A DNA stretch of 64,000 nucleotides, from contig UQYV01000005.1 of assembly GCA_900545245.1 (NCBI GenBank), forward strand, positions 24,922 through 88,921, in the 5' to 3' direction. Origin of the DNA: an uncultured Bacteroidales bacterium (GTDB taxonomy: Bacteria; Bacteroidota; Bacteroidia; Bacteroidales; UBA932). The position numbers and the translations under genes were made by a program. The notes below the pieces were generated by a model. The model was not told where the DNA came from, searched no databases, and was given only the letters and a program-made list of their open reading frames with translations. Shown one piece after another: positions 46,104-63,674 of the stretch (positions within the stretch are counted from its first letter, which is position 1; the number at the start of each line of letters is the position of its first letter).

Positions 46104-46481
46104 ATGGCAAGAATAGCCGGTGTTGATTTACCTAACAACAAGAGGGGAGAGATAGGCTTGACCTATATCTTCGGAATCGGCCGCAGCACAGCAAGGAAGA
46201 TTCTTTCCGAGCTCGGTATCGATTATGACATCAAGTGCGGTGACTGGAACGATGAGCAGGTTGCGGGCATCCGTAGCATCATCGCCAACGAATACAAGAT
46301 TGAAGGTGAGCTCCGTTCAAGCATCCAGATGAACATCAAGCGTTTGATGGATATCGGTTGCTATCGTGGTATCCGCCATCGTCTTGGACTCCCTGTCCGT
46401 GGTCAGAGCACCAAGAACAACGCCCGTACAAGAAAGGGTAAGAAGAAAACCGTTGCCAACAAGAAGAAGGCAACCAAATAG
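46104..46481 (+). CDS. rpsM: 30S ribosomal protein S13
   Basis: [14 protein letters not shown]... Confidence 0.97.
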
Positions 46482-46491
46482 TCGATGAATT

Positions 46492-46881
46492 ATGGCAAAG
46501 AAAACAACAACAGCAAAAAAGAGAGTTGTAAAGGTTGACGCTTGTGGCGAGGCTCATATTTCATCAACCTTCAACAACGTGATCATTTCTCTGACCAACA
46601 GTATCGGACAGGTGATCAGCTGGTCCTCTGCCGGAAAGAGCGGTTTCAGGGGATCAAAGAAAAACACTCCTTATGCAGCGCAGGTTGCGGCTGAGGATTG
46701 TGCAAAGACAGCCTACGACCTCGGTCTCCGCAAGGTAAAGGCGTATGTGAAGGGTCCTGGTGCAGGACGTGAGTCCGCAATCAGAACAATCCACGGTGCA
46801 GGCATCGAAGTTACCGAGATTATCGATGTTACTCCTATGCCGCACAACGGATGCCGCCCTAAGGGACGTCGTAAGGTTTAA
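46492..46881 (+). CDS. rpsK: 30S ribosomal protein S11
   Basis: 129 aa in the expected order; S11-like. Confidence 0.96.
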
Positions 46882-46909
46882 TGTGTAACAATCTAAAGCA
46901 AGAATTACT

Positions 46910-47512
46910 ATGGCAAGATATATTGGACCAAGTACCAAAATTGCGCGTAAGTTCGGCGAGCCGATCTACGGAACGGATAAGGACTTTGAAAAGAGAAATT
47001 ATCCTCCGGGACAGCACGGACTTGCAAGCAAGCGCAAGAAGAAATCCGAGTACGGCACTCAGCTCAAGGAGAAGCAGAAAGTTAAGTATACTTACGGCGT
47101 TCTCGAAAGGCAGTTCCGCAACACTTACGAGAAGGCGTCCCGCATGAAGGGACAGAAAGGTGAGAACCTCCTCTTCCTTCTTGAGTCTCGTCTTGACAAC
47201 ATCGTGTATCGTCTTGGTTTCGCTCCTACAAGGGCGGCAGCAAGACAGCTCGTTCTCCACTGCCACATTACGCTCAACGGGGAAGTTTGCAACATTCCTT
47301 CTGCAACAGTGAAGCCTGGTGACGTTGTTGCCGTGCGCGAGAGGTCAAAGAGCCTTGAGGTAATCACTGCAAGCGTCGCTTCCGCAGCGAAGTACTCATG
47401 GCTTGAGCTTGACGCGAAGGCGCTTACCGGAAAGTATCTCAATGTTCCTGTACGCGAGGAAATCCCTGAGAATATCAACGAGCAGCTTATCGTCGAGCTT
47501 TACTCCAAGTAA
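46910..47512 (+). CDS. rpsD: 30S ribosomal protein S4
   Basis: [17 protein letters not shown]... Confidence 0.97.
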
Positions 47513-47536
47513 TAATTAAACACCCAAAAAGCAATT

Positions 47537-48544
47537 ATGGCAATCTTAGCATTTCAGAAACCGGACAAGGTGATTATGCTTGAAGGAACCGATACCGTCG
47601 GCCGCTTCGAGTTCAGGCCTTTGGAGCCTGGCTACGGACAGACCATCGGTAATGCCCTCCGCCGTATTCTCCTGTCATCATTAGAGGGGTTTGCTATCAA
47701 CTCAATCAAGATTTCCGGTGTAGACCAGGAATTCGCCACAATTCCGGGCGTCGTTGAGGGAATGCAGGACATCATCCTGAACCTCAAGCAGGTGCGCTTC
47801 AAGAGAATGGTGGACACCGTTGATTCGGAGGTGGCAAACATCGTTATCAGCGGAAAGCAAGAGTTTACCGCTGAGGAAATCTCAAAGGGATTGTCTTCTT
47901 TCACGGTGTTGAACCCTGACCTTCACATCTGCACTCTCGAACCGTCCGTGAAACTTGAGATCTCTCTCACGGTTGCAAAGGGACGCGGTTTTGTTCCGGC
48001 TGACGAGAATAGGGACGAGAATACGCCTATCGGAACCATTCCGGTGGACGCCATCTACACCCCTATCCGCAACGTGAACTGGACCGTCGAGAACTGGCGT
48101 GTGGAACAGAAGACCGACTACGAGAAGCTGAATCTGGAGATTGTAACCGACGGTTCAATCACTCCGAACACGGCTCTGCAGGAGGCTGCAAACATCCTTA
48201 TCTATCACTTCAAACTGTTCACCGACGACAAGAAGCTCACTCTTGAGAGCACCGTTGAGTCTGACTCAAAGGAACTTGACGAGGAGTCACTCCATATGAG
48301 ACATCTCCTTCTCACCAAGCTTTCCGATATGGGACTTTCAGTGAGAGCATACAACTGTCTGAAGGCTGCTGACATCGACACTTTCGCTGACCTTGTTTCC
48401 TACTCAAGGGCTGAGCTTATGAAGTTCAGGAACTTCGGAAGGAAATCCCTCAACGAAATCGACCAGTTGGTTGACAAGATGAAGCTTTCATTCGGTATGG
48501 ATGTTACCAAGTATAATATTGAACAAAAGAAAAAGAACGTATAA
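47537..48544 (+). CDS. rpoA: DNA-directed RNA polymerase subunit alpha
   Basis: 335 aa with N-terminal dimerisation and C-terminal alpha-CTD domains. Confidence 0.96.
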
Positions 48545-48547
48545 AGT

Positions 48548-49051
48548 ATGAGACACAATAAGGCTTTCAACCACCTTGGTCGCAAGAGCGGTCACCGCAA
48601 GGCTCTCCTCGCGAATATGGCCACTTCACTCATTCTTCACAAGAGAATCGAGACCACTGTAGCCAAGGCAAAGGCTTTGAAGATGTACGTTGAACCGCTC
48701 ATCACAAAGTCAAAGGACGATACTACTGCATCCCGCCGTACCGTTTTCAGCTATCTCAAGAACAAGGAGGCAGTCACGGAGCTCTTCCGCACCGTTGCCC
48801 CTAAGATTGCTGAGCGTCAGGGAGGATACACAAGGGTTCTCAAGACCGGTTTCCGTCAGGGTGACGGTGCTGACCTCGCAATCATCGAGCTCGTTGACTT
48901 CAACGAGGCAGCTCTCGCTTCAACTCCTAAGAAGGAAACCAAGAAGACAACTCGCCGCAGCCGCGCAAAGAAGGCAGAGACCGTAGAGGCCGCTCCTGCA
49001 ACCGAGGCTCCGGTTGAGACTCCGGCAGAGGCACCTGCAACTGAGGAATAG
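48548..49051 (+). CDS. rplQ: 50S ribosomal protein L17, with an Ala/Glu/Thr/Pro-rich C-terminal tail
   Basis: [28 protein letters not shown]... Confidence 0.96.
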
Positions 49052-49074
49052 TCCGAAACCGACTCTAAAACCCA

Positions 49075-49111
49075 AAAATCCCCCGAAACCGCAAGATCTC
49101 GGGGGATTTTT
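49075..49111. terminator. Strong bidirectional rho-independent terminator: a perfect 12-bp stem AAAATCCCCCGA/TCGGGGGATTTT with a T-run
   Basis: Seen in the sequence, between the converging rplQ and LacI genes. Confidence 0.65.
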
Positions 49112-49150
49112 GGCTCTGGGGCGTACGGAGGCTGAAATTACAGGAGTCTC

Positions 49151-50164
49151 CTATTCTTTGGGGCGACCGACCGATTCGCGGAGAATAATCTCTGTGGACA
49201 GTTCTATTTGTGAACTGAGAGTTTTTTGACTTCGTATGCTTCCGATTAGGAGCTTTACTGCCATTCGTCCCATTTCTTCAACCCTTTGACCGATGCGGGT
49301 GACGGCGGGAACGAAATAATCGAGGTAGATGTTGTTGTCAAAAGAGACTAGTGAAATGTCATCCGGTATCTTTAATCCGGCTTCCCTGATGGCGCGAATA
49401 GCTCCGAGTCCTATGGTGTTGCTGAGCGCAAAAATGGCTGTCGGTCTGTCGGGACTATTCAGGAGCAGTTTTGTTTCAATGTAGCCGTTCTGTACAGTAA
49501 AATCGTTGCCAACGATTTGCTTGTGTTCCTCCAGTCCGGCTTTTTTCAGTGCGGCAAAGTACCCTTCTGTCCTTTTCTTGTTCGGCATCGAATCCAGATT
49601 TCCTTGAATACAGGCGATTTTCTTGTGCCCGTTCCTAATGAGAATGTTTGTCCCATCTACGCCGCCCTGCCAATTATTTGTCACGACATAGGGAAGTGGC
49701 GAATTTTCGAAGTATCTGTCCACAAGGATAATGGGTGCAATCCGTTTATTGAGGTCTTCAAGGTAATAGGGGTCAGAGCCGCAGGGAACGATAATCATTC
49801 CTTCCACCTTTCGGGAAACCAAGGCACAAATGGAATCTTTTTGCGCGGATTCATTCTCCATCGTATCAGTGACTATTGTCGTGTACCCGTGTTTCTTCGC
49901 TTCTGCAACGATGACACTTGAGATTTCCGCAAAATAGGGATTAGACATATCCGGGACCACGAGCCCGATTGTTTCTGTTTTCCCGTTGCGCAGGTTTTGT
50001 GCTAAAATGTTTGGTGTATAACCGAGTTCCGCAGCAGTTTCCCGTATGGCTTCCGCGGCTGTCTCTGAAATTCTGAATTTCTCTGCTTTCCCGGTTAGAA
50101 CTCTTGATACAGTGGATGTTGAGTATCCAGTTTTTTCGGCAATTGTTTCCAGTGTCGGTTTCAT
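49151..50164 (-). CDS. LacI-family transcriptional regulator (ribose-locus repressor, RbsR/RusR-like)
   Basis: N-terminal HTH (TLETIAEKTGYSTSTVSRVLTG) and a periplasmic-binding-protein-like sugar-binding domain; divergent from the ribokinase gene. Confidence 0.85.
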   Translation of the reverse strand: MKPTLETIAEKTGYSTSTVSRVLTGKAEKFRISETAAEAIRETAAELGYTPNILAQNLRNGKTETIGLVVPDMSNPYFAEISSVIVAEAKKHGYTTIVTDTMENESAQKDSICALVSRKVEGMIIVPCGSDPYYLEDLNKRIAPIILVDRYFENSPLPYVVTNNWQGGVDGTNILIRNGHKKIACIQGNLDSMPNKKRTEGYFAALKKAGLEEHKQIVGNDFTVQNGYIETKLLLNSPDRPTAIFALSNTIGLGAIRAIREAGLKIPDDISLVSFDNNIYLDYFVPAVTRIGQRVEEMGRMAVKLLIGSIRSQKTLSSQIELSTEIILRESVGRPKE

Positions 50165-50300
50165 ACTTGTGGTTATTTTTGCTCGTGTTTATTGCAGCAA
50201 CATTTCGATTGCGCAACAAATTTGGCTTGTTTGTGCAAAAATATTCACTTTTTTCATCCCAAAATATGGTTTTGAGGAATAATTTCAGAAATATCGTGAA

Positions 50301-50327
50301 TATATTTGCGCAAACGATTGTGCAAAG
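50301..50327 (+). promoter_or_regulatory. Ribokinase promoter -7 box (TATATTTG) fused to an imperfect 20-bp palindrome TTGCGCAAACGATTGTGCAA; candidate LacI-family operator
   Basis: It has a central CG and 16 of 20 symmetric positions. A near-identical copy lies at 62391-62413. Further TTGYGCAA boxes at 50209-50216 and 50231-50238 overlap the reverse-strand LacI -7 box (CAAAAATA, 50236-50243). Confidence 0.45.
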
Positions 50328-50381
50328 TGTCTGCATTCTTTCCACAATCGAAATGAATAACCGCTAATATAACACTAATAT

Positions 50382-51284
50382 ATGGGAAAAATCGTTGTGA
50401 TCGGGAGTGCGAATACCGATTTGGTAATCAATACCTCGCGCATACCGGAACCTGGTGAAACAGTTCTTGGAGGCAAGTTTATGATGGCTGCCGGGGGAAA
50501 AGGCGCAAATCAGGCTGTGGCGGCGCAGAGACTCGGAGCGGACGTCACTTTTGTCGCTTGTGTGGGAGATGATCTTTTCGGCCGAAATTCACTTGAAAAC
50601 TATCGTAAAGAAGGGATGAATACCGCTTTCGTTTCCGTAAAGGAGGGTGTTCCATCCGGAGTCGCCTCAATATTTGTCGACGCTAAGGCGGAGAATGTGA
50701 TTGTGGTCGCTCCTGGAGCAAATTCCGAACTGCTCAAAGCGGAAATTGATGCGGCAACTGCAGAAATCGCTTCAGCGGATTTTGTGCTTATGCAGTTGGA
50801 AACTCCGATGGAAACTGTTGAGTTTGCTGCAACTAAGGCTGCAGAAGCCGGAACAAGAATAGTCCTCAACCCGGCTCCGGCTGCTCTCCTTTCAGATGCG
50901 TTGCTCTCAAAACTATGGCTGATTACTCCGAATCGCACTGAAGCCCAGCTTCTTACAGGGCTCCCGGTGACGAATGTGCAAGAGGCGGCAACAGCTGCCG
51001 AGGCTCTCGCAGCCAAGGGAGTGAAAAATGTGGTGATAACCCTCGGTTCAAAGGGTGCCTATGTGCTATCTCAAGACTTCCGTGGCATAGTCCCGGCAAC
51101 TCCTGTGAAAGCGGTGGATACGACAGCTGCGGGCGACACCTTCAATGGAGCCCTCTGTGTGGCTCTTTCCGAAGGACGCGGAATCAAGGACGCCTGCACA
51201 TTCGCCGCCAAGGCATCGGCCATATCCGTCACCCGCCCGGGTGCCCAGCCTTCGATACCATATAGAAAAGAAATAGTAGAATAA
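50382..51284 (+). CDS. rbsK: Ribokinase
   Basis: PfkB fold with the GG anion hole (MMAAGGKGANQA) and the C-terminal DTTAAGDTFNGAL motif. Confidence 0.85.
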   Translation: MGKIVVIGSANTDLVINTSRIPEPGETVLGGKFMMAAGGKGANQAVAAQRLGADVTFVACVGDDLFGRNSLENYRKEGMNTAFVSVKEGVPSGVASIFVDAKAENVIVVAPGANSELLKAEIDAATAEIASADFVLMQLETPMETVEFAATKAAEAGTRIVLNPAPAALLSDALLSKLWLITPNRTEAQLLTGLPVTNVQEAATAAEALAAKGVKNVVITLGSKGAYVLSQDFRGIVPATPVKAVDTTAAGDTFNGALCVALSEGRGIKDACTFAAKASAISVTRPGAQPSIPYRKEIVE

Positions 51285-51330
51285 ACAAACATATCGTTAC
51301 ATTGGGAAATTAGTAATCTTATAGTGTATA

Positions 51331-52893
51331 ATGAAGATGGGAAAATATAACATCATGACATTTCTTCTGATGGCAATGGTGTCCTGCTCCACTATGAATG
51401 GACAGAGCAATTCGGGCTCTGAAGCTCTCGAACCGTTAACTGTGAGCAGAATATGCACAACTTCGGGCGACGATAAGCCTTATCTTGAAGTTGGCGGTAA
51501 GCCATTTGCCGTTTATGGCGCACAGATTCGCTTAGACATATTCCGTTCGGTTGACAAACTTGACTGGCCTTCAATTGAAGAATACTTCGCGCTTGCGTCA
51601 AGGCTTGGCGTGAACTGCGTGCAAGTTCCGTGTCCTTGGGCTTTCATAGAGCCGAAAAGGGATTCATGGGATTTCGACGCTGTGGATAAAGTTCTCGGAT
51701 TTGCCAATAGTCACAATCTAAAGGTTGAACTCTTGTGGTTCAGTACCAATATGATAGGTGATTCCTATTCGTGGCTGGTTCCGACCTACATTTTGGCTAC
51801 GCCGTCAATTCGCCTTAGGCGGGATGATGACGGGAGTTGGCATGGGCTCTATGGCTATGCCTATTCCTTACAGATGAACAGCGACTTTGTCCTTGAACGT
51901 GAGAAAAATGCCGTGACGCGTCTTTTTACCCACATCCGCGAATGGGACGAGGCCAATGGAAACCATCACCCGGTCATTACTTGTCAGGTGCATAACGAGC
52001 CCGATGCTCTCGTGCGATGGCGCCTTGCCGAGAAAAAGATTTCTCACAAGGACGGCACGAGGTTGACACAGAAGGAAGCTTGGGATATGACTCTCAAGTC
52101 TCTGGACGTTATAGGACGGGCAGTGAAGAATAGCGCCTATTCCGTTGCGACCCGTACCAACATCATTTCTGGCAATGGCGTCAACGATTTTCCTCAGACT
52201 CCAGGCATATCACCGAAGGACGTCTATGCTCTTGAAGGGATAGATTTCGTGAGTTTCGACCCTTATATGTCTGAGGTCGATAAGATTGCATACGAGGTGA
52301 GTCAGTATGCGTCCATGTTGGGGAATTATCCGCTTGTCGCGGAGAATCGGGGCGATTATTCGAATACTGCAAGCCTCATGCTTGTTGCTTCTGCGCTTGG
52401 CGGAGGCTATGACATCTATGACCTCGCCACTAGCAAATACATAACATCTCACAGCGAGCCCCCGTTCAACTCAGAGGGAATATACAATTCAGACTTCACT
52501 CCGAAGCCTCATGTGCCTTTGGTGCAAACACTGCTTTCGGCTCTTGTCGCTGCGGGAGAGGATATCGCGCTGACCGCCACTGATGACTTTGCCGTGTTCA
52601 ATGTCAGGACTGATACCCCTCAGACGACTCTCTCTCAGACCATAAGCACGACAGGGGCAGAGCTGAAGTTCGAGACCTCTTCTGGAGCTCTTGCCTTTGT
52701 CCTTGATAGGGGAGACAGGCTCATCGCGTTCTCTACGGCAGATGCCGTGCTGAATGTTGGCGGCGGCAGTCTCACTAATAGGAACGACAATGCCATCGCC
52801 TTGAAAGGCGGGCAGTTGACTGAACTTGGTTTCAAGTCATCTGGAACAAGACAAAGTACTGTAAAACATAATATAGGGACAATATTTAAATAA
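51331..52893 (+). CDS. Putative TIM-barrel (clan GH-A-like) glycoside hydrolase lipoprotein; paralog of the 58075-59547 gene
   Basis: Lipoprotein signal (MAMVSCS) and an NEP-type candidate acid/base motif (QVHNEPD). It is clearly homologous to the 58075 product. Confidence 0.45.
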   Translation: MKMGKYNIMTFLLMAMVSCSTMNGQSNSGSEALEPLTVSRICTTSGDDKPYLEVGGKPFAVYGAQIRLDIFRSVDKLDWPSIEEYFALASRLGVNCVQVPCPWAFIEPKRDSWDFDAVDKVLGFANSHNLKVELLWFSTNMIGDSYSWLVPTYILATPSIRLRRDDDGSWHGLYGYAYSLQMNSDFVLEREKNAVTRLFTHIREWDEANGNHHPVITCQVHNEPDALVRWRLAEKKISHKDGTRLTQKEAWDMTLKSLDVIGRAVKNSAYSVATRTNIISGNGVNDFPQTPGISPKDVYALEGIDFVSFDPYMSEVDKIAYEVSQYASMLGNYPLVAENRGDYSNTASLMLVASALGGGYDIYDLATSKYITSHSEPPFNSEGIYNSDFTPKPHVPLVQTLLSALVAAGEDIALTATDDFAVFNVRTDTPQTTLSQTISTTGAELKFETSSGALAFVLDRGDRLIAFSTADAVLNVGGGSLTNRNDNAIALKGGQLTELGFKSSGTRQSTVKHNIGTIFK

Positions 52894-52901
52894 CCACTGT
52901 T

Positions 52902-55900
52902 ATGAGAAATCCATACAAGATTGCCGTTATCACGGCGGCCATGATGCTTTTTTGTCACAGTCTGTTTGCTCAAAATGCAGTCACCGGAACAGTGACTGAC
53001 ATAAATGGCGAGCCGATACCTGGCGTATCTGTGGCTGTTCTTTCCAACTCTACTCTGACAGGTACCGTGACTGACATGGATGGGAAATATTCCGTCAATG
53101 CTCCGGCTACTGGACAGCTCGCTTTTAGTTCGATAGGCTATGTCTCGCAGACCGTGAATATCATGAATAGGGCCGTCATCAACGTTACTCTCGCGGATGA
53201 CCTCAAGATTCTCGACGAGTCCGTTGTGGTCGGTTTCGCTACTCAGAAGAAAATCAACCTTACCGGTTCCGTTGCCACGGTCGATTCCAAACAACTTGAG
53301 GATGTGCCGGTGCGAAATGCCGTGCTTGCACTTCAGGGACAGGTGCCGGGACTCAACATCAAACAGGTGAGCGGACAGCTCTACAACAAGAATCCGAACA
53401 TCACCTTGCGAGGTCAGGGCACTATCGGTCAGGGTTCTTCCGGAAGTGTGCTCGTGCTCATCGATGGGATGGAAGGCGATTTATTCTCCATCAATTCTCA
53501 GGATATTGAGAACATATCTGTTCTCAAGGATGCTGCGGCTTCATCAATCTACGGCTCCCGCGCTCCGTTCGGAGTCATCCTCGTGACAACGAAAAAGGGC
53601 AAGGAAGGCAAGATGCAGGTGAACTATAACAACAATTTTCGATTCAATACTCCTCTTAAGCTGCCGCATTCCGCGGACTCGTATTCATGGGCGCTATATT
53701 TCAACGATGCCTCCAACAATGACGGCAACGCGGACGACATCGGAGCCGCGCGTCTTCAGCGAATCAAAGATTATCAGGATGGAGTCATCTCCTACAACAC
53801 TATTCCCGTCGGCAATCAGTGGGGCACGGCCTATACCGAAGGTAACGATAACATCGACTACTATGACGTGTTCTACAAAAAAGTTTCCTTCGCACAGGAG
53901 CATAATTTCAGCTTCTCCGGAGGCAATAGCAAAATCAATTATTTCGTATCGGGTAACTACCTCAAGGAAGACGGACTCTTCACTTTTGAGGGCGCTGATC
54001 TTGACGGCTTGTCAAGGGGAAATGTCTTCGGAAAGATTGAAGCTAGACCATTCGATTTCTTGACGATAGGCTTCAGCAGCCGCTTCATACGCGAGGACTA
54101 TCATGAACCTACCGTTCTTTCGGACGAAACCCTTTGGTATTTCGGCCAGTATCTCTGGCCGGTCGCTCCTCTTTATGACCCCAACGGAAACCTTTTCAAT
54201 GACCTTGCTCTCCGCTTCAGCCGTGGAGGTCAGAGAACCATATCCAACACTACTTCGGCAAATCAGTTCAACTTTGTTCTGACTCCAGTGAAGGGATGGC
54301 GGATAGTAGGTGACGTGAACTATAGGTACCGTTCCTATTTCAACAAGATAGTGGACAAGGAAGTATGGCAGACCTGCATCGATGGTGTCACAAAGGGCTC
54401 TTCATGGGACTATCACACAGGGGTTGCAAATGATGACGGCAGAAACCAGTATGTCAATATCAATGCCTACACCGACTATGAGAACAATATAGCTGGGAAT
54501 TATTTCAAACTCATGACCGGTGTGCAGATGGAGTCATATTCCGTAAATTCTACATATGCCAAGCGTGAAGGGCTCATCGTTCCGGACATTTCTTCGCTTG
54601 ACACGACGTCCGGACTCTTCAACGGTGAAAAGGTCAGTCCGATTGTTGGAGGCGGTTCTTCCGCTTGGAGGACTCTGGGTTTCTTCGGACGTCTGAACTA
54701 CAACTATAGGGAGCGCTATCTTCTGGAGGGAAATCTACGTTACGACGGATCGTCACGCTTCGCTGCTGACAAACGCTGGGGACTATTCCCATCAGTTTCG
54801 GCAGGATGGAATATTGCCAAGGAGCCGTTCTTCGAGCCCGCACAGCGCTGGGTCAACACCCTGAAGTTTAGGGCGTCGTATGGCTCCCTTGGAAACCAAA
54901 ACACAAGTTCGTTCTACCCGACATTCGCGCTTATGAACTTTGCAAATTCCCAGGGAAGTTGGCTCATTGACGGCAAGAAAACCAACATCGCCTGGCCGGC
55001 CTCACTCATAAGTTCTTCCCTCACGTGGGAAAAAGTGAAGTCGTGGAATGTCGGCCTTGATGTCACGGCCTTCGACGGCCGCCTCAATTCGTCGATAGAG
55101 GGCTATGTAAGAAGAACTGAGGATATGATAGGCCCGGCAGACGAACTTCCTGTAATACTCGGAACCGCAGTACCTTATACAAACAATACCGATCTCCGGA
55201 CTACAGGGTTCGAGTTTGAGATTTCTTGGAACGACAGAGCCTTCGACCAACTTGACTATGGAGTGCGCTTTGTCCTTTCCGACGCAGTCACGAGAATTAC
55301 GAGATATTCCAATCCTTCGCAAACTCTTTCTACCTACTATGAGGGAATGACTCTAGGAGAGTTCTGGGGGTATGAGTCCGTCGGCATCGCGCGCAGCGAA
55401 GACCAGATGCTCGAACATCTTATGACCCTTCCGAACGGAGGGCAGACCGCGCTTGGTTCCAACTGGCGTGCCGGCGATGTAATGTACAGAGACTTGAACG
55501 AGGACGGCAAGATTGACACCGGCTCATATACGCTTGATGATCACGGCGACCTTAAGATAATCGGCAACACCACGCCGCGCTACAATTACGCATTCGATAT
55601 AAACCTTGCATGGAAAGGTATCGACCTGCGTATGTTCCTTCAGGGCGTAGGCAAGCGAGACTATTTCCAGAAAGGAAAGTATTTCTTCGGCAGTTGCGGA
55701 TGGAGTAAATGGGGTACCATGGTTCTCCGCCAGCATCTCGACTATTTCCGTGATGATCCGGAAAGCCCTCTCGGACTCAATACGGACGGCTATTACCCAA
55801 GACCTTACCTCGATTCAGAGAAGAATGTCCAGTGGCAGAGCATGTATGTCCAGGACGCTTCCTACCTGAGACTGAAGAATCTTCAGATAGGATACACATT

Positions 55901-56084
55901 CCCGCAGACTCTGACAAAGAAAATAGGCATACAGAACCTGAGACTTTATTTCTCGGGAGAGAACCTCTTGACGTTCACTAAGATGACTAATCTCTTTGAT
56001 CCAGAGACCATCGGTGAGAACGAGACAGGAAATGTCTATCCTCTTTCTCGGACATACTCTTTCGGCTTAAGCGTCACTTTCTAA
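52902..56084 (+). CDS. SusC/RagA-family TonB-dependent receptor of the ribose/nucleoside locus
   Basis: 1060 aa with a signal peptide, carboxypeptidase-regulatory-like domain, plug (ESVVVGFATQKK) and barrel ending LSVTF. Confidence 0.9.
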   Translation: MRNPYKIAVITAAMMLFCHSLFAQNAVTGTVTDINGEPIPGVSVAVLSNSTLTGTVTDMDGKYSVNAPATGQLAFSSIGYVSQTVNIMNRAVINVTLADDLKILDESVVVGFATQKKINLTGSVATVDSKQLEDVPVRNAVLALQGQVPGLNIKQVSGQLYNKNPNITLRGQGTIGQGSSGSVLVLIDGMEGDLFSINSQDIENISVLKDAAASSIYGSRAPFGVILVTTKKGKEGKMQVNYNNNFRFNTPLKLPHSADSYSWALYFNDASNNDGNADDIGAARLQRIKDYQDGVISYNTIPVGNQWGTAYTEGNDNIDYYDVFYKKVSFAQEHNFSFSGGNSKINYFVSGNYLKEDGLFTFEGADLDGLSRGNVFGKIEARPFDFLTIGFSSRFIREDYHEPTVLSDETLWYFGQYLWPVAPLYDPNGNLFNDLALRFSRGGQRTISNTTSANQFNFVLTPVKGWRIVGDVNYRYRSYFNKIVDKEVWQTCIDGVTKGSSWDYHTGVANDDGRNQYVNINAYTDYENNIAGNYFKLMTGVQMESYSVNSTYAKREGLIVPDISSLDTTSGLFNGEKVSPIVGGGSSAWRTLGFFGRLNYNYRERYLLEGNLRYDGSSRFAADKRWGLFPSVSAGWNIAKEPFFEPAQRWVNTLKFRASYGSLGNQNTSSFYPTFALMNFANSQGSWLIDGKKTNIAWPASLISSSLTWEKVKSWNVGLDVTAFDGRLNSSIEGYVRRTEDMIGPADELPVILGTAVPYTNNTDLRTTGFEFEISWNDRAFDQLDYGVRFVLSDAVTRITRYSNPSQTLSTYYEGMTLGEFWGYESVGIARSEDQMLEHLMTLPNGGQTALGSNWRAGDVMYRDLNEDGKIDTGSYTLDDHGDLKIIGNTTPRYNYAFDINLAWKGIDLRMFLQGVGKRDYFQKGKYFFGSCGWSKWGTMVLRQHLDYFRDDPESPLGLNTDGYYPRPYLDSEKNVQWQSMYVQDASYLRLKNLQIGYTFPQTLTKKIGIQNLRLYFSGENLLTFTKMTNLFDPETIGENETGNVYPLSRTYSFGLSVTF

Positions 56085-56096
56085 ATAATAACGAAT

Positions 56097-58067
56097 ATGA
56101 AAAGAATAATAAGATATTCCGGCGTTTTGGCGGCCATTTCCCTTGTGACTGTCTCATGCAATGCTTTCCTTGACCTGCAGCCGGAGTCAAATCTCTCTCC
56201 AACTCAGTACCTTACCACGGAGGATAATCTTGCGGCATACGCCACGGACCTCTACAATATGTTTCCGGTCCATGGTCAGACAAGCTGGGGAACATGGAAG
56301 AACGACAGCGATACGGATAATATGGCGTATGCCAACCCGAGCGATGCCTTTGCCCCTGGTTATTGGAAAGTCGGGCAGACCGGCGGCAGTTATGAATTTA
56401 CGGGAATCTACCGCTGCAACTACTTTTTTGACAATGTCCTTGAAAATTTTGAGGCAGGGAAGATAACAGGAACGGCGGCGAATATACGCCACTACATCGG
56501 GGAAGTCTATTTTTTCCGGGCATGGCAATATTATCTCAAACTTCAGTCTCTCGGGGACTTTCCGATAGTCACTCGTCTTCTCGAAGATGATCTTCAGGCT
56601 CTTACGGCAGAGAGCATCCGCCAACCGAGGAATGAAGTCGCTAGGTTCATCCTTTCCGACCTTGACAAGTCCATTGAGTATATGGCCGATGTAGCTCCTC
56701 GCGGCGGTAGCAATAGGCTGTCCAAGGACTGCGCCCACCTGATGAAGTCACGTGTGGCCCTATATGAGGGAACCTGGCTGAAGTATTTCAAGGGCACGGC
56801 ATTCGTGCCTGGAGGCGACGGCTGGCCCGGTCAGGCAAGTCATCCGGACTACCAATACCCTTCCGGCAACATAGATTCCGAAATCGCTGCTTTCCTCAAG
56901 ATTGCAATGACCGAGGCAAAGATTGTGGCCGACCGGCATCCGCTCACCTCAAGCACTGGACATTTCCAGTCATCGGCTGAGGCGGTCGCGAATCCATATT
57001 TCGACATGTTCGGTGACACGGATATGTCAAAATATGGCGAAGTACTGCTCTGGAAGGCATATAGCGTCGCGGAGGGTGTGACCAACTCCGTCATTGAGTT
57101 CGCGTCGGCCGCCAATCAGGGTTATGGCATAACAAAGAGTATGGTCGATGCCTTTGTCATGGCGAATGGTCTTCCGATTTATGCGGCTGGGAGCGGCTAC
57201 GCGGGAGATGCGGACCTTCTTAAAGTTACTGAAGATCGTGACTCTCGTGCGCAGATATTTATAAAGAGGCCGGGCGACACGAATCTTCACAGTGAGCCAG
57301 GTCCGGAGTCCTATCAGATGGAGCCTTGGCCGAACATTGTCAACTCCACGGCGTCGATGCGCTACACCACCGGATATGCTCTTCGTAAGGGCCTTAACTT
57401 CGATGGTTCCCAATCTGTCCGGGACAAGAGTTATGTCGGTTCCATTGTATTCAGGTCTGCGGAAGCATATCTGAACTACATTGAGGCCTGCTACGAAGCG
57501 ACGGGTGCACTTGATGCCGATGCCGAGAGGTACTGGACTGCAATCCGTGACCGCTCGAAAGTCGGCAACTGGCAGACTACGATAGACAATACGGACATGG
57601 AAAAAGAGAAGGAGACGGACTGGGGCGCATATTCCGCTGGGAAACTTGTGGATGCCACCCTCTTCAACATCCGCCGCGAAAGGCGCTGCGAACTGATGGC
57701 AGAGGGCTTCCGCGCAGCCGATGTCCGACGCTGGAGGTCTATGGATCAGATGATCGACACACCTTATCATGTGCTTGGCGTCAATGTGTGGGAAAGCCTC
57801 AGCTCCAATCCGGACTTCCTTGTTGCCAATGGCAACAACCTCAAGGAAGGCGAGAACATTTCGCCGAAAGATTTTAGCAAGTACTGCGCTCCGTACCACA
57901 TCCTCTCGAACAACCGTGCCTATGAGGGCTACAGATGGAGGATGGCTCACTATCTCGACCCTATCGCGGTGCAACATTTTCTGATAACTGGCGGAGGTTC
58001 TGCAGACAATTCGACACTTTACCAAAATCCAGGGTGGCCGCTTCAGGCCGGACAAGGTGCAGAATAG
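56097..58067 (+). CDS. SusD/RagB-family lipoprotein
   Basis: 656 aa with lipoprotein signal (VSCNAF) and SusD-like TPR region (YFFRAWQYYLKLQSLGDFPIV). Confidence 0.85.
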   Translation: MKRIIRYSGVLAAISLVTVSCNAFLDLQPESNLSPTQYLTTEDNLAAYATDLYNMFPVHGQTSWGTWKNDSDTDNMAYANPSDAFAPGYWKVGQTGGSYEFTGIYRCNYFFDNVLENFEAGKITGTAANIRHYIGEVYFFRAWQYYLKLQSLGDFPIVTRLLEDDLQALTAESIRQPRNEVARFILSDLDKSIEYMADVAPRGGSNRLSKDCAHLMKSRVALYEGTWLKYFKGTAFVPGGDGWPGQASHPDYQYPSGNIDSEIAAFLKIAMTEAKIVADRHPLTSSTGHFQSSAEAVANPYFDMFGDTDMSKYGEVLLWKAYSVAEGVTNSVIEFASAANQGYGITKSMVDAFVMANGLPIYAAGSGYAGDADLLKVTEDRDSRAQIFIKRPGDTNLHSEPGPESYQMEPWPNIVNSTASMRYTTGYALRKGLNFDGSQSVRDKSYVGSIVFRSAEAYLNYIEACYEATGALDADAERYWTAIRDRSKVGNWQTTIDNTDMEKEKETDWGAYSAGKLVDATLFNIRRERRCELMAEGFRAADVRRWRSMDQMIDTPYHVLGVNVWESLSSNPDFLVANGNNLKEGENISPKDFSKYCAPYHILSNNRAYEGYRWRMAHYLDPIAVQHFLITGGGSADNSTLYQNPGWPLQAGQGAE

Positions 58068-58074
58068 ACTGAAA

Positions 58075-59547
58075 ATGAGAAAGATTGCACTTCTTACGGC
58101 ATCGTTTGCCATTTTGTTATCCTGTTCGGGGACAGCAAACCCCGGCGGGAATACACCTCCGGTTGTGGTCTCGCGGGAGTTTCGCCTGACCGTTGACGGA
58201 AAACCATTCCTTATGCTCGGGGCCCAACTCCGCACTGACTATTTTCTTCAGCTTGACGGGCGCGATGTCGATAATCTTGACGACTATTTTTCGCTTGCTG
58301 CTGGTCTGAACATCACCTGCGTACAGGTTCCTGTGGCTTGGAGTGATGTCGAGACCGGATTTGACGAATATTCCGACAAGATTGTCAATGCCTACATTGA
58401 CTATTGCGAGAAATATGGGATGAAGTTGGAAATTCTATGGTTCGGAAGTTATATGTGTGGCTATTCGGTCGAGGGGTATATCCCAGCCTATGTCATAGCC
58501 GACACGGTGACATATCCAGAATTGAATCCGTCCGCGGCATATCAGGGATGGCTCGGAAAACAGTTCTATCTCAAGCCGGGAAATACGAAACTTGTTGCAC
58601 GGGAGGTTAAGGCCATGTCGAAGATGATGGAATTCATCGATGAGCACGACCGTAGTAATGGGTGTCCTCACACGGTAATCGGCATTCAGATTGAGAACGA
58701 GCCTGATATGTTGGCGACAAGACACAATGCAGCGCACGGTTATTCTGCGACCGACCTTTGGCCGAGCCTTATGTACCATTTGAACGAACTCGGCAAGGCT
58801 GTCAAGTCTTCCTCTTACAACTGCTACACCCGTGTGAACCAGACCGTCACTTACGACGACTGGATTTCTTGGAGCAGGAGAATCGTTGAACGAGAAGGCA
58901 TTGACTATGTGGGATTCGACCCGTATGTGAATGATGTCGGGACTCTCGCTGACTGGCTGTCGCAGATTCAGGGCATTCCGGGCAACTTTTCGCACATCGC
59001 GGAAAACGGCGGAGAGTTCATGAACAATGACCTTCTGACGCTTAAGGCTCTGACGATGGGCTGCGGATACGAGGTTTTTGAGGTTATCACCACTCCTCAT
59101 CGATACCTTGTGGATTGGACGCTGCGCGGGGTCTATAATCCGGACTTTACTCCTAAACCGCAGACGCAAAGGCTTATAGATGCCTACGGAATATTTCGTG
59201 CGGCGTGGTATGACTTTGCCGTAGCATCTCCGGAGAAAATGAAAGGATTTAACCTTGGGTCTTCTGATGGGAAGAATACTGCTTCGGAGTCATTTGTCAC
59301 GTCCTTCGGAAAAATCGGATGGGAAACCACCTCACGTGGAGTAGCTTTCGCGATAGAAGGCTCCGGATACATCACTGTTGGATCAACTAAGGCTGATGTC
59401 CTTTCTTTCGATTTCGCGGCTGCGTCAATAGGAATAGGTCATTATGATGCCGCAGGAAAATGGATTAAAACTTCTGATGTCGTGCCTCCGGCAGATGGAA
59501 GACTGTCTTTGTTTCCATGTAAAGTTTACAGAATAACGTTAAAATAA
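58075..59547 (+). CDS. Putative TIM-barrel (clan GH-A-like) glycoside hydrolase lipoprotein; paralog of the 51331 gene
   Basis: Lipoprotein signal (ILLSCSG) and an IQIENEPD motif. It aligns with the 51331 product (GAQLR.D.F...CVQVP..W...E...D...DK......K.E.LWFGS). Confidence 0.45.
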   Translation: MRKIALLTASFAILLSCSGTANPGGNTPPVVVSREFRLTVDGKPFLMLGAQLRTDYFLQLDGRDVDNLDDYFSLAAGLNITCVQVPVAWSDVETGFDEYSDKIVNAYIDYCEKYGMKLEILWFGSYMCGYSVEGYIPAYVIADTVTYPELNPSAAYQGWLGKQFYLKPGNTKLVAREVKAMSKMMEFIDEHDRSNGCPHTVIGIQIENEPDMLATRHNAAHGYSATDLWPSLMYHLNELGKAVKSSSYNCYTRVNQTVTYDDWISWSRRIVEREGIDYVGFDPYVNDVGTLADWLSQIQGIPGNFSHIAENGGEFMNNDLLTLKALTMGCGYEVFEVITTPHRYLVDWTLRGVYNPDFTPKPQTQRLIDAYGIFRAAWYDFAVASPEKMKGFNLGSSDGKNTASESFVTSFGKIGWETTSRGVAFAIEGSGYITVGSTKADVLSFDFAAASIGIGHYDAAGKWIKTSDVVPPADGRLSLFPCKVYRITLK

Positions 59548-59558
59548 GAGATAATAAT

Positions 59559-60785
59559 ATGAAGAAAATTTGGTTTTTATTGACTGCCATAGCAGCGTTG
59601 ATTACCGCCTGCAACAAGACGGAAATACCTTCAATCTTGACGGATATCGAGGAACTTTCTGTTACATCGGATGGCGGTATCTTTGACGTGAAAGTAACGT
59701 CAAATGTTCCTACAAGGACAGAGATTACATACGAGGATGGCTCTGATTGGATTTTCCTTATGCCGAAGGTTCTTAAAGGAGATGGTACTCTCAATTTCAC
59801 AATAAGCAAGTTTCTCGACTATGACGCTGTCCGCAAGGCGACGGCGACGATTACCGGCGACGGCGTGGCTAAAGTCATCACGATCGTTCAGACTGGGCGT
59901 CCTAAGCCAGAGGTGACGGAACTGGATCTTGATTCATACAATGTGTATTCGGATGTTGAGGGGGGCTCTTATGAGATTTCCGTCTCGACTGCCGGAGATT
60001 GGATGGCAAGCGTTGGTGGGGAGGCTGCCTGGTGTACTCTAGAGAATGGTTCTGGTTCGGGAGTGGGAAAGTTTGTGATAAAGGTAGCTGAATCCACGGA
60101 CTACCAATACCGCACTGCGGAGGTAAATGTCATCTCCGGACAACTTAAAAGGATGGTCCTTGTCCAACATGTCGGGACAAAAATAGGCAGTCTTGTATGG
60201 GCAAACGCGAATGTTGATGAACCAGATACATTCGGAAAGAACTGTCAGGTGCGCGGAAAACTCTATCAGTGGAATTCCAAGGTTGGATTTCCTACATATT
60301 CTGCGAACGACCATGGCGAACCTGAAAGACCGATACCTGGATACGTCGGTGGGGCGAAGGATGCTCATTCCGAGACTTGGACGGAAGAAAATGATCCTTG
60401 TCCTGAAGGGTGGAGAGTCCCGACAATTGATGAACTCTGCACTCTTATCGGGCACGAAAAGAGCGAAAAAATGTTCTGGTTTGACTATTGGATGACTAAC
60501 GGTATGTCTGTTGCCGGTGTCTATGCAGGACTTGATAGGGAAGTTATGAAGGCCGAGTCTGGGCTAGGACATATGAAAGGTGCAATCTTCATCCCTCAGG
60601 CAGGTCTTATAGACAGGGATAGTTGCCTTCAGATAGACTGGTGGGATGTTGCCTTGTGGAGCTGTACTAATGTGGGGCAGACCTGGGATATGCGTGCCGT
60701 GTGGATGAATGGTGATCAAAATTATAGTGTTACTGATTGGAGAGGCAGTATGTGTGCTCTATCCGTCCGCTGTGTCCTAAAATAG
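59559..60785 (+). CDS. Surface lipoprotein with two BACON-like domains and a C-terminal Fibrobacter-succinogenes-major-paralogous (Fib_succ_major) domain
   Basis: Lipoprotein signal (LITACN). BACON-like segments end in VITIVQTG and RMVLVQHVG. Fib_succ_major motifs are present (GKLYQWNS, DPCPEGWRVPTIDEL). Confidence 0.55.
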   Translation: MKKIWFLLTAIAALITACNKTEIPSILTDIEELSVTSDGGIFDVKVTSNVPTRTEITYEDGSDWIFLMPKVLKGDGTLNFTISKFLDYDAVRKATATITGDGVAKVITIVQTGRPKPEVTELDLDSYNVYSDVEGGSYEISVSTAGDWMASVGGEAAWCTLENGSGSGVGKFVIKVAESTDYQYRTAEVNVISGQLKRMVLVQHVGTKIGSLVWANANVDEPDTFGKNCQVRGKLYQWNSKVGFPTYSANDHGEPERPIPGYVGGAKDAHSETWTEENDPCPEGWRVPTIDELCTLIGHEKSEKMFWFDYWMTNGMSVAGVYAGLDREVMKAESGLGHMKGAIFIPQAGLIDRDSCLQIDWWDVALWSCTNVGQTWDMRAVWMNGDQNYSVTDWRGSMCALSVRCVLK

Positions 60786-60808
60786 TTCTTTGATTTTTTA
60801 ACTTGCGT

Positions 60809-60840
60809 CCGCTTCCAATATGTACAGCAATTGGAAGCGG
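60809..60840 (+). other. Perfect 11-bp stem-loop CCGCTTCCAAT-N10-ATTGGAAGCGG between the lipoprotein and nucleoside hydrolase genes; candidate attenuator or RNA-processing site
   Basis: Seen in the sequence; no clear U-tract follows. Confidence 0.3.
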
Positions 60841-60863
60841 ATGAATAATAATCTCTTTATGTG

Positions 60864-61895
60864 ATGAAAAAGATTTGTATTACAAAGGAGTGGGAATTTT
60901 TTTTGATTTCTGTATTCCTATTGATGTTGGCATCTTGTACGCAGGTTTCAAAACCGCAGCCTGTTATCTTCGATACGGATATGGGAAATGATATCGATGA
61001 CGCGCTTGCGCTCGCGATGCTCCACCGCTATGCCGATGAGGGGGAGATTCAGCTTCTCGGAGTTATGATTAACAAGAATGATCCTGCTTCGGCGGAATAT
61101 ATAGATATGGTGGACAGCTATTATGGATATGGCTCCGTTCCGATTGCGGTCGCGGAAAGACCGGCGGACTCAAGTGCGGACGGACGCAATGCCGCAGGGC
61201 AGAATTTCGTGGAGGCAGTGGTGTCGAAGTGTGATTTTTCTCGTAGTGTGAAGGATTATTCGGCGCTGCCTTCCGCAGTGAAACTCTACCGGCAGTTGCT
61301 TGCGGGACAGCCTGACCGTTCTGTTACAATCATCTCCACCGGATTCTCGACAAATCTTGCGGCTCTGCTCGACTCTCCTGCGGATGACATATCCCCGCTG
61401 ACCGGGCACGAACTTCTATCGAGAAAAGTGAAACTTGTGTCCGTGATGGCGGGTAATTTTCGGGAAGAGGGGCAGGACAGATTTCCTGAATACAATGTTG
61501 TGAGAGACATTCCGTCCGCACGGAAATTTTTTGCCGAATGTCCTGTTCCCATCGCTGTGTCCCCATTCGAACTTGGTTGGGAAATTTGCTATCCGGCATC
61601 CTCAATTGAGTCCAATCTCGGCTATGATACGCTGAATCCGGTCGTTGAGGCTTACAAGGACTATCTTCCTATGCCGTACAACCGTCCGACCTGGGACCTG
61701 ACCGCGGTTCTCTATGCCGTGGAAAAACCTCAAGAGTTCAGCACAGGTTCTTTGGGTACAGTTTCCATTGATGATTGCGGAATGTCAACATTCACTGCGT
61801 CTGAAAGTGGTCTGCATCGGATTTTGTCTGTAGATCCATCTGCCCGTCAATCCATTCTCGATCGTTTGGTTGAGCTTACGACAAAGGCAAATTGA
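60864..61895 (+). CDS. Secreted or lipoprotein inosine-uridine-preferring nucleoside hydrolase (IUNH family)
   Basis: Signal peptide with Cys (LMLASCT), then the IUNH Ca-binding signature DTDMGNDIDDALAL. Confidence 0.8.
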   Translation: MKKICITKEWEFFLISVFLLMLASCTQVSKPQPVIFDTDMGNDIDDALALAMLHRYADEGEIQLLGVMINKNDPASAEYIDMVDSYYGYGSVPIAVAERPADSSADGRNAAGQNFVEAVVSKCDFSRSVKDYSALPSAVKLYRQLLAGQPDRSVTIISTGFSTNLAALLDSPADDISPLTGHELLSRKVKLVSVMAGNFREEGQDRFPEYNVVRDIPSARKFFAECPVPIAVSPFELGWEICYPASSIESNLGYDTLNPVVEAYKDYLPMPYNRPTWDLTAVLYAVEKPQEFSTGSLGTVSIDDCGMSTFTASESGLHRILSVDPSARQSILDRLVELTTKAN

Positions 61896-61900
61896 CGATA

Positions 61901-62326
61901 TTATTGGATGACACTCAACTTCTTCAGTTTTTCCAAATCGAGATTTGTGCATTTGGCGACAATGTCGGCAGGAACACCAGCTTGAAGGAATTTTTGTGCG
62001 GTCTGGAGTACGGCTTCTTCTCGCCCTTCCCGTCGGGCGGCTTTAATCATACCTTTGGTTCTGAAATCTTCCAACATAATCCTTGTATATAATTGTTTCT
62101 GCTCTTTGTTGAAGTTGGCGACTTTCGCGGCTTTGAACAGTCTCAACATCATCCTGTCCTTCACCCAATCAGGCACTTCGGGCATTTGCCCCATGTTCTT
62201 GAACATATAGCACCAACGGTCAAGGTCGGTTTTGCACTGCTTGGGTGTCTTGTCGAAATGAGCCAACGCTGCAAATATAATACAAATCTTTCTTGTTTTT
62301 GCGCAAGTAATAGTGGACTTGCGCAA
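61901..62326 (-). pseudogene. Remnant (C-terminal half) of a PD-(D/E)XK nuclease family transposase / Rpn-like gene
   Basis: 141 aa containing DRWCYMFKN and a C-terminal TAQKFLQAGVPADIVAKCTNLDLEKLKKL, as I recall for the C-terminal half of the roughly 300-aa Bacteroides proteins of this family. The N-terminal nuclease half is missing. Confidence 0.35.
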
Positions 62327-62390
62327 AATAATTTTGATGAGAAGTTGAATTTAATCCCTTTTGCGGGTTGTTTTTAACGAGAATTGTTGA

Positions 62391-62413
62391 TAATTTTGCG
62401 CAAACGATTGTGC
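62391..62413 (+). promoter_or_regulatory. Transporter promoter -7 box (TAATTTTG) fused to TTGCGCAAACGATTGTGC; second copy of the candidate LacI operator
   Basis: The 19-mer TTTGCGCAAACGATTGTGC is identical to the one at 50305-50323; it lies 60 bp upstream of the transporter ATG. Confidence 0.45.
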
Positions 62414-62472
62414 CGGATGTCGGCACATTTTGTTCAAGACCGATATATTATTAACACATCAAATCTGATACT

Positions 62473-63486
62473 ATGTTTATTGCAAACAGTCAATTTTTGG
62501 CGGTCATCCTTTGTTTCATCACGATGCTCTGTTGGGGCTCGTGGGGAAACACACAGAAAATGGCCGCGAAGAGCTGGAGATATGAGCTCTTCTATTGGGA
62601 TTACGTGATAGGAATGGTTCTGTTTTCCCTGATTCTTGCATTCACGCTCGGCTCGTTCGGTTCGGAAGGACGTCATTTCATCGATGACCTCGCTCAGGCC
62701 GACATCAACAGCATCGCGTGGGTTCTTCTCGGTGCGGTTGTTTTCAATGTCTCCAACATCCTTCTTTCGGCATCGACTTCCAAGGCCGGAATGTCGGTAG
62801 CTTTCCCTCTTGGAGTGGGACTCGCTTTGGTTATAGGAGTTGTCAACAACCTTATTTTCCATCCGAAACCTTCGACAAACATTCCGCTCCTGCTTGTCGG
62901 TGTCGCTCTCGTTGTTGTTGCAATCGTCTGCAACGGAGTCGCTTCGGGCAAGGTCGACAAATCTGAAAGAGACCCACGGGAAAACCGTATGGGACTGATT
63001 TATGCGGTTCTTGCCGGCGTGATAATGTCCTTCTTCTCGGCTTTGGTCTATAACGGAATCGATATCAACAACATACACAACCCGGCTGAGGGAATGCTTA
63101 CTCCATATACCGGAACGGTGATTTTCGCCTTAGGAGTCCTCGTCAGCAACTTCCTCTTCAATTGTGTGTTCACGCTTAATGACTCCTCAAAGCCCGGTGT
63201 GAGATTCGCGGACTATTTCAAAGGTGATGCGAAGACCCATCTCGTCGGCATGCTCGGTGGTGCAATCTGGTGTCTCGGTACCGGTCTCAATTATGTGTCG
63301 GCAGGCACAGCCGGAGCTGCGGTCAGCTATGCCCTCGGTCAGGGTGCTCCACTTATTGCCGCCATTTGGGGCGTGTTCATTTGGAAGGAGTTCAAGGGTG
63401 CGAAAAAGAGTGTGAACTGGCTTCTTGCCCTTATGTTCGTCCTCTTCATCGCAGGTCTTGGCCTGATTATAGCTTCGGGTAACTAG
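62473..63486 (+). CDS. GRP-family (GlcU/RbsU-like, DMT superfamily) sugar transporter; putative ribose uptake permease
   Basis: 337 aa with about 10 TM helices and an N-terminal ...MLCWGSWGN motif similar to GlcU/RbsU. Its promoter carries the same operator-like sequence as rbsK. Confidence 0.55.
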   Translation: MFIANSQFLAVILCFITMLCWGSWGNTQKMAAKSWRYELFYWDYVIGMVLFSLILAFTLGSFGSEGRHFIDDLAQADINSIAWVLLGAVVFNVSNILLSASTSKAGMSVAFPLGVGLALVIGVVNNLIFHPKPSTNIPLLLVGVALVVVAIVCNGVASGKVDKSERDPRENRMGLIYAVLAGVIMSFFSALVYNGIDINNIHNPAEGMLTPYTGTVIFALGVLVSNFLFNCVFTLNDSSKPGVRFADYFKGDAKTHLVGMLGGAIWCLGTGLNYVSAGTAGAAVSYALGQGAPLIAAIWGVFIWKEFKGAKKSVNWLLALMFVLFIAGLGLIIASGN

Positions 63487-63674
63487 GCGACCTTCAAAAA
63501 ATAATCTGCATCGTCTTTCTCATCAGTCGTGTACATCCAGTACACTCCTTCTTTTACCAAGATAAGCGTCTGATTGTCAAGATTATATGTATAGTGTCGG
63601 TTAGAGACATCATTTTTTACAGAAAATGTCGTTTCTAACCGACATTTTGTGTATATTTGCAAAAACAATGAATT

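Follow-up and report, generated by a model that had tools for sequence, protein, structure and literature searches.

The closest described systems are the rus PULs, ribose-utilisation loci known in 70 configurations, among which a LacI-type protein is the commonest alternative regulator to RusR (Glowacki et al., bioRxiv 10.1101/574913; Cell Host Microbe 2020). The word 'operator' does not occur in the main text of the preprint (10.1101/574913), and the B. thetaiotaomicron regulons of PMC3878776 include no LacI-type ribose regulon (the words ribose, RbsR and ribokinase are absent). For the LacI family in general, passages of PMC4052901 describe even palindromes with a central CG, typically 30-140 bp upstream of the gene; passages on Bacteroides in that study concern UxaR, UxuR and KdgR. 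Bacteroidetes promoters carry the -7 consensus TAnnTTTG (sigma-ABfr; PMC7366714).

We analysed a 64-kb stretch of DNA from an uncultured Bacteroidales bacterium, here called the window. All of the genes that mark a rus PUL are present in one locus (ribokinase, SusC/SusD, a permease and an adjacent regulator, often joined by a nucleoside hydrolase), and like the described rus PULs it also encodes glycoside-hydrolase-like proteins and a nucleoside hydrolase and has its regulator upstream. On gene content, it is a PUL of the rus-like kind, for ribose utilisation, and its LacI-family regulator is divergently encoded. Its genes are as follows.

49151-50164, minus strand: LacI/GalR-family regulator, 337 aa (Pfam LacI HTH plus Peripla_BP_1/3/4), divergent from rbsK; presumed cognate repressor
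50382-61895, plus strand: rus-like PUL operon, rbsK to nucleoside hydrolase
50382-51284, plus strand: ribokinase, rbsK (NCBIfam equivalog, 375.9 bits against a cut-off of 341)
51331-52893, plus strand: DUF4978/GH-like protein (Pfam)
52902-56084, plus strand: SusC (Pfam)
56097-58067, plus strand: SusD (Pfam)
58057-59547, plus strand: second DUF4978 protein (Pfam)
59559-60785, plus strand: BACON-domain protein (Pfam)
60861-61895, plus strand: nucleoside hydrolase (Pfam IU_nuc_hydro)
61901-62287, minus strand: C-terminal remnant of an Rpn-family PD-(D/E)XK nuclease/'transposase' gene (PDDEXK_2 and TIGR01784 match C-terminal parts only)
62473-63486, plus strand: GRP/DMT-type sugar transporter, 337 aa (Pfam Ureide_permease, Sugar_transport and TMEM144; TIGR00776 weak)

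The transporter is a candidate RusT-like ribose permease. It is monocistronic, with a terminator-like hairpin downstream (63623-63648), and as in the B. thetaiotaomicron rus order it stands at the 3' end, after the nucleoside hydrolase. In contrast to B. thetaiotaomicron rus, the regulator is of the LacI type rather than RusR, and in contrast to the rus PULs described, the transporter forms a separate unit behind a convergent Rpn-family gene, with its own copy of the operator and of the surrounding control region. A GH18/BT_3987-like PUL on the minus strand lies just past the AAA_14 ATPase gene that follows the transporter (L079 12513-21014), and the transporter is therefore found at the boundary of two PULs. 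Other SusC-like genes of the window are at 180-3119 (minus strand) and 21502-24621 (plus strand). The two DUF4978 paralogues (51331-52893 and 58057-59547) are about 30% identical and flank the SusC/D pair, and the first also has weak GH42/GH35-like matches. At its other end, the rus locus directly adjoins the end of a ribosomal-protein/rpoA-rplQ cluster (46104-49113; rpoA 47537-48544, L17 48548-49051). Between rplQ and the regulator gene, which converge, lies a perfect inverted repeat of 15 bp (49072-49113), likely a bidirectional terminator.

The preliminary description of this DNA had drawn attention to a perfect 19-nt sequence present twice about 12 kb apart, fused to a -7 box and lying about 60 bp upstream of the transporter ATG. 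All three points hold. The 19-mer TTTGCGCAAACGATTGTGC occurs exactly twice in the 64-kb window, at 50305-50323 and 62395-62413; no further match was found there even with 3 mismatches, and none was found in 100 dinucleotide-preserving shuffles, where none is expected by chance. The predicted control elements in and around the two copies are listed below.

50209-50238, no strand: two half-site boxes on the regulator side, TTGCGCAA at 50209-50216 and TTGTGCAA at 50231-50238, 22 bp start to start
50301-50325, plus strand: rbsK promoter-operator, TATATTTG fused to GCGCAAACGATTGTGC
62299-62326, no strand: two TTGCGCAA boxes on the transporter side, 62299-62306 and 62319-62326, 20 bp start to start
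62391-62415, plus strand: transporter promoter-operator, TAATTTTG fused to GCGCAAACGATTGTGC; unchanged in 10 same-species contigs and also present in L091 and L092
62409-62437, plus strand: leader hairpin TGTGCCGgatgtCGGCACA, then TTTTGTT, overlapping the right end of the operator

Both copies match TAnnTTTG, as TATATTTG upstream of rbsK (50301-50308) and as TAATTTTG upstream of the transporter (62391-62398), a motif with only 37 matches on the two strands of the 64-kb window. ATA-nn precedes both copies of the 19-mer, and within the resulting 24-nt block, ATAnnTTTGCGCAAACGATTGTGC, 22 of 24 positions are equal, the two mismatches being the degenerate 'nn' positions of TAnnTTTG. A repeat finder extended the similarity to 43 nt at 77% identity (50293-50335 versus 62383-62425). 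In each copy, 26-27 nt separate the -7 box from the nearest exact TTTG upstream (50271-50274 and 62360-62363), more than expected for a -33 element; this element is reported to be weak or absent in other Bacteroidetes (PMC7366714). A sigma-70 promoter scan is uninformative for Bacteroidetes.

The part of the repeat that looks like a protein-binding site is the 16-mer GCGCAAACGATTGTGC (50308-50323 and 62398-62413), an imperfect even palindrome whose first G is also the last base of the -7 box. Six of the eight pairs between its arms, GCGCAAAC and GATTGTGC, are complementary and its centre is CG, which is the form of LacI/GalR-family operators (even palindromes of 16-22 bp with a central CG). 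The half-site GCGCAAAC resembles that of the PurR box, ACGCAAAC. A degenerate search with GCRCAAWCGWTTGYGC returned these two operator sites only in the window. From the end of the operator to the start codon there are 58 nt at rbsK (ATG at 50382) and 59 nt at the transporter (ATG at 62473). Measured from the centre of the operator, the distance is about 66 nt in each case, and both measures fall within the range typical of the LacI family. Unlike classical LacI/GalR operators, which go with sigma-70 -10/-35 promoters, the operator of the window is fused in fixed register to TAnnTTTG.

A protein suited to this site is encoded next to it. The adjacent LacI-family regulator to which the preliminary description had referred is the gene at 49151-50164, divergent from rbsK and the only LacI-family gene in the window. 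Its product has the HTH, and the hinge leucine is present in 'AQNL'; in LacI-family proteins such as PurR and LacI, this leucine inserts at the central CpG. In NCBIfam the regulator is closest to RbsR, CytR and PurR, each below cut-off, and in the PDB to CcpA, E. coli RbsR and PurR. The C-terminal tetramerisation tail is absent. Thus, both a regulator with HTH and hinge leucine close by and, as described below, a motif that co-varies with the regulator gene were found, as expected of a LacI-family operator.

We therefore read the 19-mer as the core of a promoter-operator for the adjacent LacI-family repressor, with predicted binding at the promoters of both the rbsK-PUL operon and the transporter, and give this reading a probability of roughly 0.8. 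It supports, at the level of predicted sites, the earlier proposal that the two promoters are co-regulated by the adjacent regulator. According to this reading, a dimer of the regulator would bind each predicted operator, and because the operator reaches from the downstream edge of the -7 box across the expected start of transcription, initiation would be blocked at both promoters. Ribose or a phosphorylated derivative would release the repressor. One operator copy would control rbsK and the SusC/D-hydrolase genes and the other the GRP/RusT-like transporter, while the regulator, through the half-site boxes, would probably exert weak autoregulation at its own divergent promoter. Together with the two units, this promoter would then make up one small ribose regulon. 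Repressor binding, repression over activation, the nature of the inducer and the positions of the transcription starts are all inferred here from sequence.

Comparison with related loci argues that the site belongs to this regulator. A scan of GTDB species genomes with the regulator protein gave 78 loci, 39 of which have the regulator divergent from rbsK. GCNCAANCGNTTGNGC was found at up to 2 mismatches in the regulator/rbsK intergenic region (about 150-350 bp) of 34 of these 39, including loci of Bacteroides xylanisolvens, B. pyogenes, Prevotella, Alistipes and Muribaculaceae, and TAnnTTTG is fused to it in the same register in 25 (perfect) or 32 (at most 1 mismatch) of the 34. The fused box and palindrome is thus kept between regulator and rbsK in most of the orthologous Bacteroidales loci. 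Positions G1, A5, A6, C8, G9, T11 and T12 are invariant among 23 distinct orthologous sites; the family consensus is GCRCAAWCGWTTGNGC and that of the module TAnnTTT-GCRCAAWCGWTTGNGC. The distance from operator to ATG ranges from 37 to 148 nt. The canonical palindrome is absent from five of the 39 orthologous loci, which have half-site boxes only, and the motif is absent from loci whose regulator is 29% identical or less.

A second scan, centred on the transporter, covered 80 metagenomic loci (781 kb). At up to 1 mismatch the motif occurs 36 times, against about 1.7 expected, and it is present in 20 of the 32 loci with a regulator gene versus five of the 48 without (Fisher p = 1.2e-6). In all five of the latter the site is immediately upstream of rbsK or the transporter; the other 12 regulator-carrying loci have no site at up to 1 mismatch. 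Since whole-locus scans at 2 mismatches are at chance level (an estimated one match per 13 kb), only matches with at most 1 mismatch or restricted to intergenic regions were used. Two or three operators surround one regulator in several distant loci (for example L059, L065-L067 and L099), which indicates that multi-operator regulons are normal in this regulator family.

These scans also bear on the idea that an extended promoter element, or a binding site for some other protein (an alternative sigma factor, for example, or a global carbohydrate regulator), accounts for the shared sequence. The half-sites TTTGCGCAA or TTTGCACAA are found fused to TAnn at the regulators' own promoters without the full palindrome, and could be read as an extended -7 motif. 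However, a full 16-bp palindrome in which neither the central CG nor the CAA/TTG arms vary is a signature of LacI-type sites, the motif goes with the presence of the regulator orthologue, and rus-like loci of the transporter-centred scan with nucleoside hydrolase and transporter but no regulator gene have no site even at 2 mismatches. We consider this explanation improbable, and continue with the site as a LacI-family operator.

The likeness between the two regions is not limited to 19 nt. Box 1, box 2, the -7 box, the operator and about 35 nt of leader are common to both in the same order, indicating that the duplicated unit is a whole bidirectional control region of about 150-190 bp. The start of box 1 is 97 bp from the operator-opening TTGCGCAA in both regions, and the boxes are kept in L001-L009 at 96-98 bp from the operator. 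All five TTGCGCAA octamers of the 64-kb window are in these two intergenic regions, against 1.5 expected in the window. In the first region, box 2 has TATTTTTG (the complement of 50236-50243) fused to it on the minus strand, facing the regulator gene and in the same register as at the rbsK and transporter promoters. We regard this as a putative promoter of the regulator itself with a split operator, the half-sites being 22 bp apart start to start instead of 12. The regulator-side octamers (TTGCGCAA or TTGYGCAA) are 12-14 nt apart, the normal operator spacing plus 8-10 bp, and the half-site pair may be a split autoregulatory operator. Pairs of TTGCGCAA/TTGYGCAA octamers 20-22 bp apart also occur on the regulator side in L001-L013, L019, L024, L099, L101 and L109, with box 1 again 96-98 bp ahead of the operator's TTGCGCAA and box 2 joined to a TAnnTTTG of the opposite strand, and in L099 and L101 a second full operator takes the place of the half-site pair. 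The two palindromic boxes on the transporter side could also pair with each other in a 10-12-bp hairpin (62297-62328).

CytR binds octamers with 10-13-nt spacers (PMC3454398), and in clostridial CcpA cre-var sites the half-sites are about one helical turn further apart (PMC5263246). By analogy, the boxes of the window resemble both, a resemblance of spacing only. No CRP-like partner sites were identified here. A LacI-like tetramer that loops between boxes and operator is unlikely, since alignments to the dimeric PurR, CcpA and RbsR reach the C-terminus of the regulator and leave no extra tetramerisation helix.

The position of the boxes and of the operator also has to be weighed against the possibility that the LacI-family protein does bind these sites but activates, or both activates and represses, instead of blocking transcription sterically. 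RusR of B. thetaiotaomicron appears to act as an activator, in that deletion of rusR abolishes growth on ribose and leaves about 10% of induction (10.1101/574913); rus loci are thus not all controlled by repression. The upstream TTGCGCAA boxes, at their constant 97 bp, could be read as sites of the activator type. RusR, however, is a different type of regulator, with LacI listed as an alternative class (10.1101/574913), and overlap of the operator with the -7 box and the predicted start is the position of a repressor. Most LacI-family members, according to passages of PMC4052901, bind DNA in the ligand-free state and repress. Activation therefore has little chance of being the right account, and we retain the repressor reading.

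The leaders downstream of the two operators appear to differ in their RNA structure. Hairpin TGTGCCGgatgtCGGCACA is strong and falls in the first ~30 nt of the predicted transporter mRNA; it is terminator-/attenuator-like, and a 5' stabiliser or an attenuator are possibilities. A weak counterpart stem in the rbsK leader is broken in strain L090, and the hairpin is for that reason not a feature common to both copies. An Rfam search with an E-value threshold gave no match in either leader. A shared RNA leader or riboswitch was ruled out by this result and by the hairpin being strong in the transporter leader only.

Gene order in other genomes suggests how the transporter came to have its own control region. 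In L007, L002, L003 and L093 the order is regulator and rbsK divergent around the promoter-operator, then transporter, GH, SusC and SusD. The regulators of L007, L002 and L003 are 80% identical to that of the window, and the transporters of all four loci 94-97%. The spacer between rbsK and transporter in the nearest relatives is 86 nt and lacks a second operator. Because the transporter directly follows rbsK in 48 of 80 homologues, membership of the operon is by parsimony ancestral and the order in the window derived. Synteny, both in the 48 of 80 and in the nearest relatives, thus agrees independently with the link between transporter and ribokinase operon that had been proposed from the repeat. 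DNA homology to L007 passes from the end of rbsK (51263) to 62449-63486 and resumes at 51304; on the parsimony argument, it would in effect be the transporter gene with the last 24 bases of its leader that moved. In at least three other lineages (L059, L069/L070 and L120/L121), stand-alone transporters have their own operator; that of L120/L121, TATTTTTGTACAAACGTTTGCGC, ends 76 nt before the transporter ATG. The sequence evidence therefore supports the view that the transporter is a member of the predicted ribose regulon even when detached from the PUL.

Identity levels in the surrounding DNA are mosaic. Compared with L007, the closest MAG, the DNA identity of 40732-63486 is 93% in the ribosomal-protein flank, 71% in the regulator and rbsK, 81.5% in the PUL body and 86% in the transporter, a pattern that suggests recombinational exchange of the regulator-rbsK module in one of the lineages. 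In L090 (4370-4696, compared with the window from 51294 onward) the RbsK protein is identical and the DNA 97% identical through regulator and rbsK, and the PUL body is different: homology to the window stops 10 nt past the rbsK stop, and only 25 nt separate rbsK from the start of a SusC-like gene. Swapping of PUL cassettes at the 3' end of rbsK is suggested by this arrangement. A 15-mer of the rbsK leader of the window, TCGAAATGAATAACC (50348-50362), is found exactly in the rbsK-transporter spacer of L007, L002 and L003, where it is followed by CGCAATAATG, which resembles the end of an rbsK leader. The recurrence of TCGAAATGAATAACC may be what is left of a second ribokinase gene, or the trace of some earlier rearrangement.

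Comparison of the regulator/rbsK region with the transporter region (62287-62472) bears on the age of the second copy. The two regions resemble each other in the boxes, the -7 box, the operator and the distances between these elements only. The similarity of the spacers is that of shuffled sequence (z = 0.7 from box to promoter, 0.0 between boxes and -1.0 for the upstream flank), and that of the leaders is marginal (p = 0.02). A recent intragenomic duplication is ruled out by spacers at this level, and the copy must therefore be old, or come from another rus locus, with the functional blocks and their spacing kept. Likeness confined to the blocks, as judged from the alignment, would fit selection rather than a recent copy. 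A blastn search of 170 loci for a donor returned matches to 62287-62448 in same-species contigs only.

Variation within the species has a similar distribution. Across 10 same-species contigs, 9 of the 186 positions of 62287-62472 vary, none of them in the boxes, the -7 box or the operator; avoidance of the blocks among strains is by itself not significant (p ~ 0.1). In strain L090 the first control region varies outside the blocks only and the boxes are invariant. Based on family-wide position frequencies, two independent operators would be identical at all 16 positions with a chance of about 2.5%, and paired operators in other genomes differ at 1-4 positions. The exact identity seen here may reflect common descent, gene conversion or selection for one optimum. 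We rejected a mobile repeat (MITE, IS end or recombination site): there are two copies only in 64 kb, both at promoters, and the rbsK copy is orthologous across orders.

The preliminary description had placed a gene remnant between PUL and transporter. This is correct for the window, where the gene is truncated, but in other strains the Rpn/PD-(D/E)XK gene is intact. The intact gene, of about 310-330 aa, is present in L081, L083 and L084, divergent from the transporter, and the full-length L081 protein matches PDDEXK_2 at 7.5e-39. A stretch of 704 bp (present in L081, 388-1091) is missing from the window and from L079, L080 and L082, with the junction at 62287. L092 (2613-5729) has a tandem duplication of the 3' end of the nucleoside-hydrolase gene and the Rpn gene, with insertion of an ORF6N domain, and in L091 (3668-5656) the Rpn gene, control region and transporter are found beside a different LacI/ribokinase pair, 51% and 50% identical to that of the window. 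One duplication junction falls directly after box 1 (TTGCGCAAgt). The neighbourhood is structurally unstable; that the Rpn-family nuclease caused the rearrangement is speculation.

In such a region the second copy might be a dead relic of a segmental duplication or rearrangement, possibly Rpn-associated, with the transporter constitutive or driven by another promoter, but although the 704-bp deletion, the tandem duplication and the differing upstream contexts show that the region is unstable among strains, the 24-nt block differs at two degenerate positions only and boxes and spacings are kept between spacers no more similar than shuffled sequence, none of the blocks varies among the 10 same-species contigs, and other lineages have independently placed an operator before the transporter, which makes this account very improbable.

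Beyond the operator reading itself, we put forward a more far-reaching proposal, which we hold only tentatively and think unlikely as a whole. The transporter control region would be a complete portable copy of the regulator/rbsK region, comprising a strong operator fused to a catabolic -7 box and a conserved split auxiliary operator, and would have travelled with the transporter, in a stretch of DNA that genes for Rpn-family recombination-promoting nucleases had shaped. The split auxiliary operator of this proposal would consist of two octamer half-sites with a helical turn more than usual between them, and the proximal half-site would be fused to a -7 box on the other strand. If the proposal is true, LacI-type rus loci rearrange by shuffling self-contained ribose-responsive promoter cassettes, and in the Bacteroidetes a dimeric LacI-family repressor regulates its own gene with a relaxed, CytR-like spacing of half-sites.

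In the literature searched, the operator consensus of this regulator group, the fixed fusion of operator and -7 box, and the duplication of a full control region with relocation of a transporter all appear not to have been described. The switch is of an ordinary kind and does not overturn current understanding. Overall, the analysis offers a testable operator, TAnnTTT-GCRCAAWCGWTTGNGC, for LacI-type regulators, the second most common regulator class of Bacteroidetes rus loci. With the 25-bp module, members of the regulon could be predicted in uncultured Bacteroidales, and Bacteroides engineering could use it as a ribose-responsive part. The locus also provides an example of a relocated PUL gene that would be kept under the same signal by carrying its entire control region with it.
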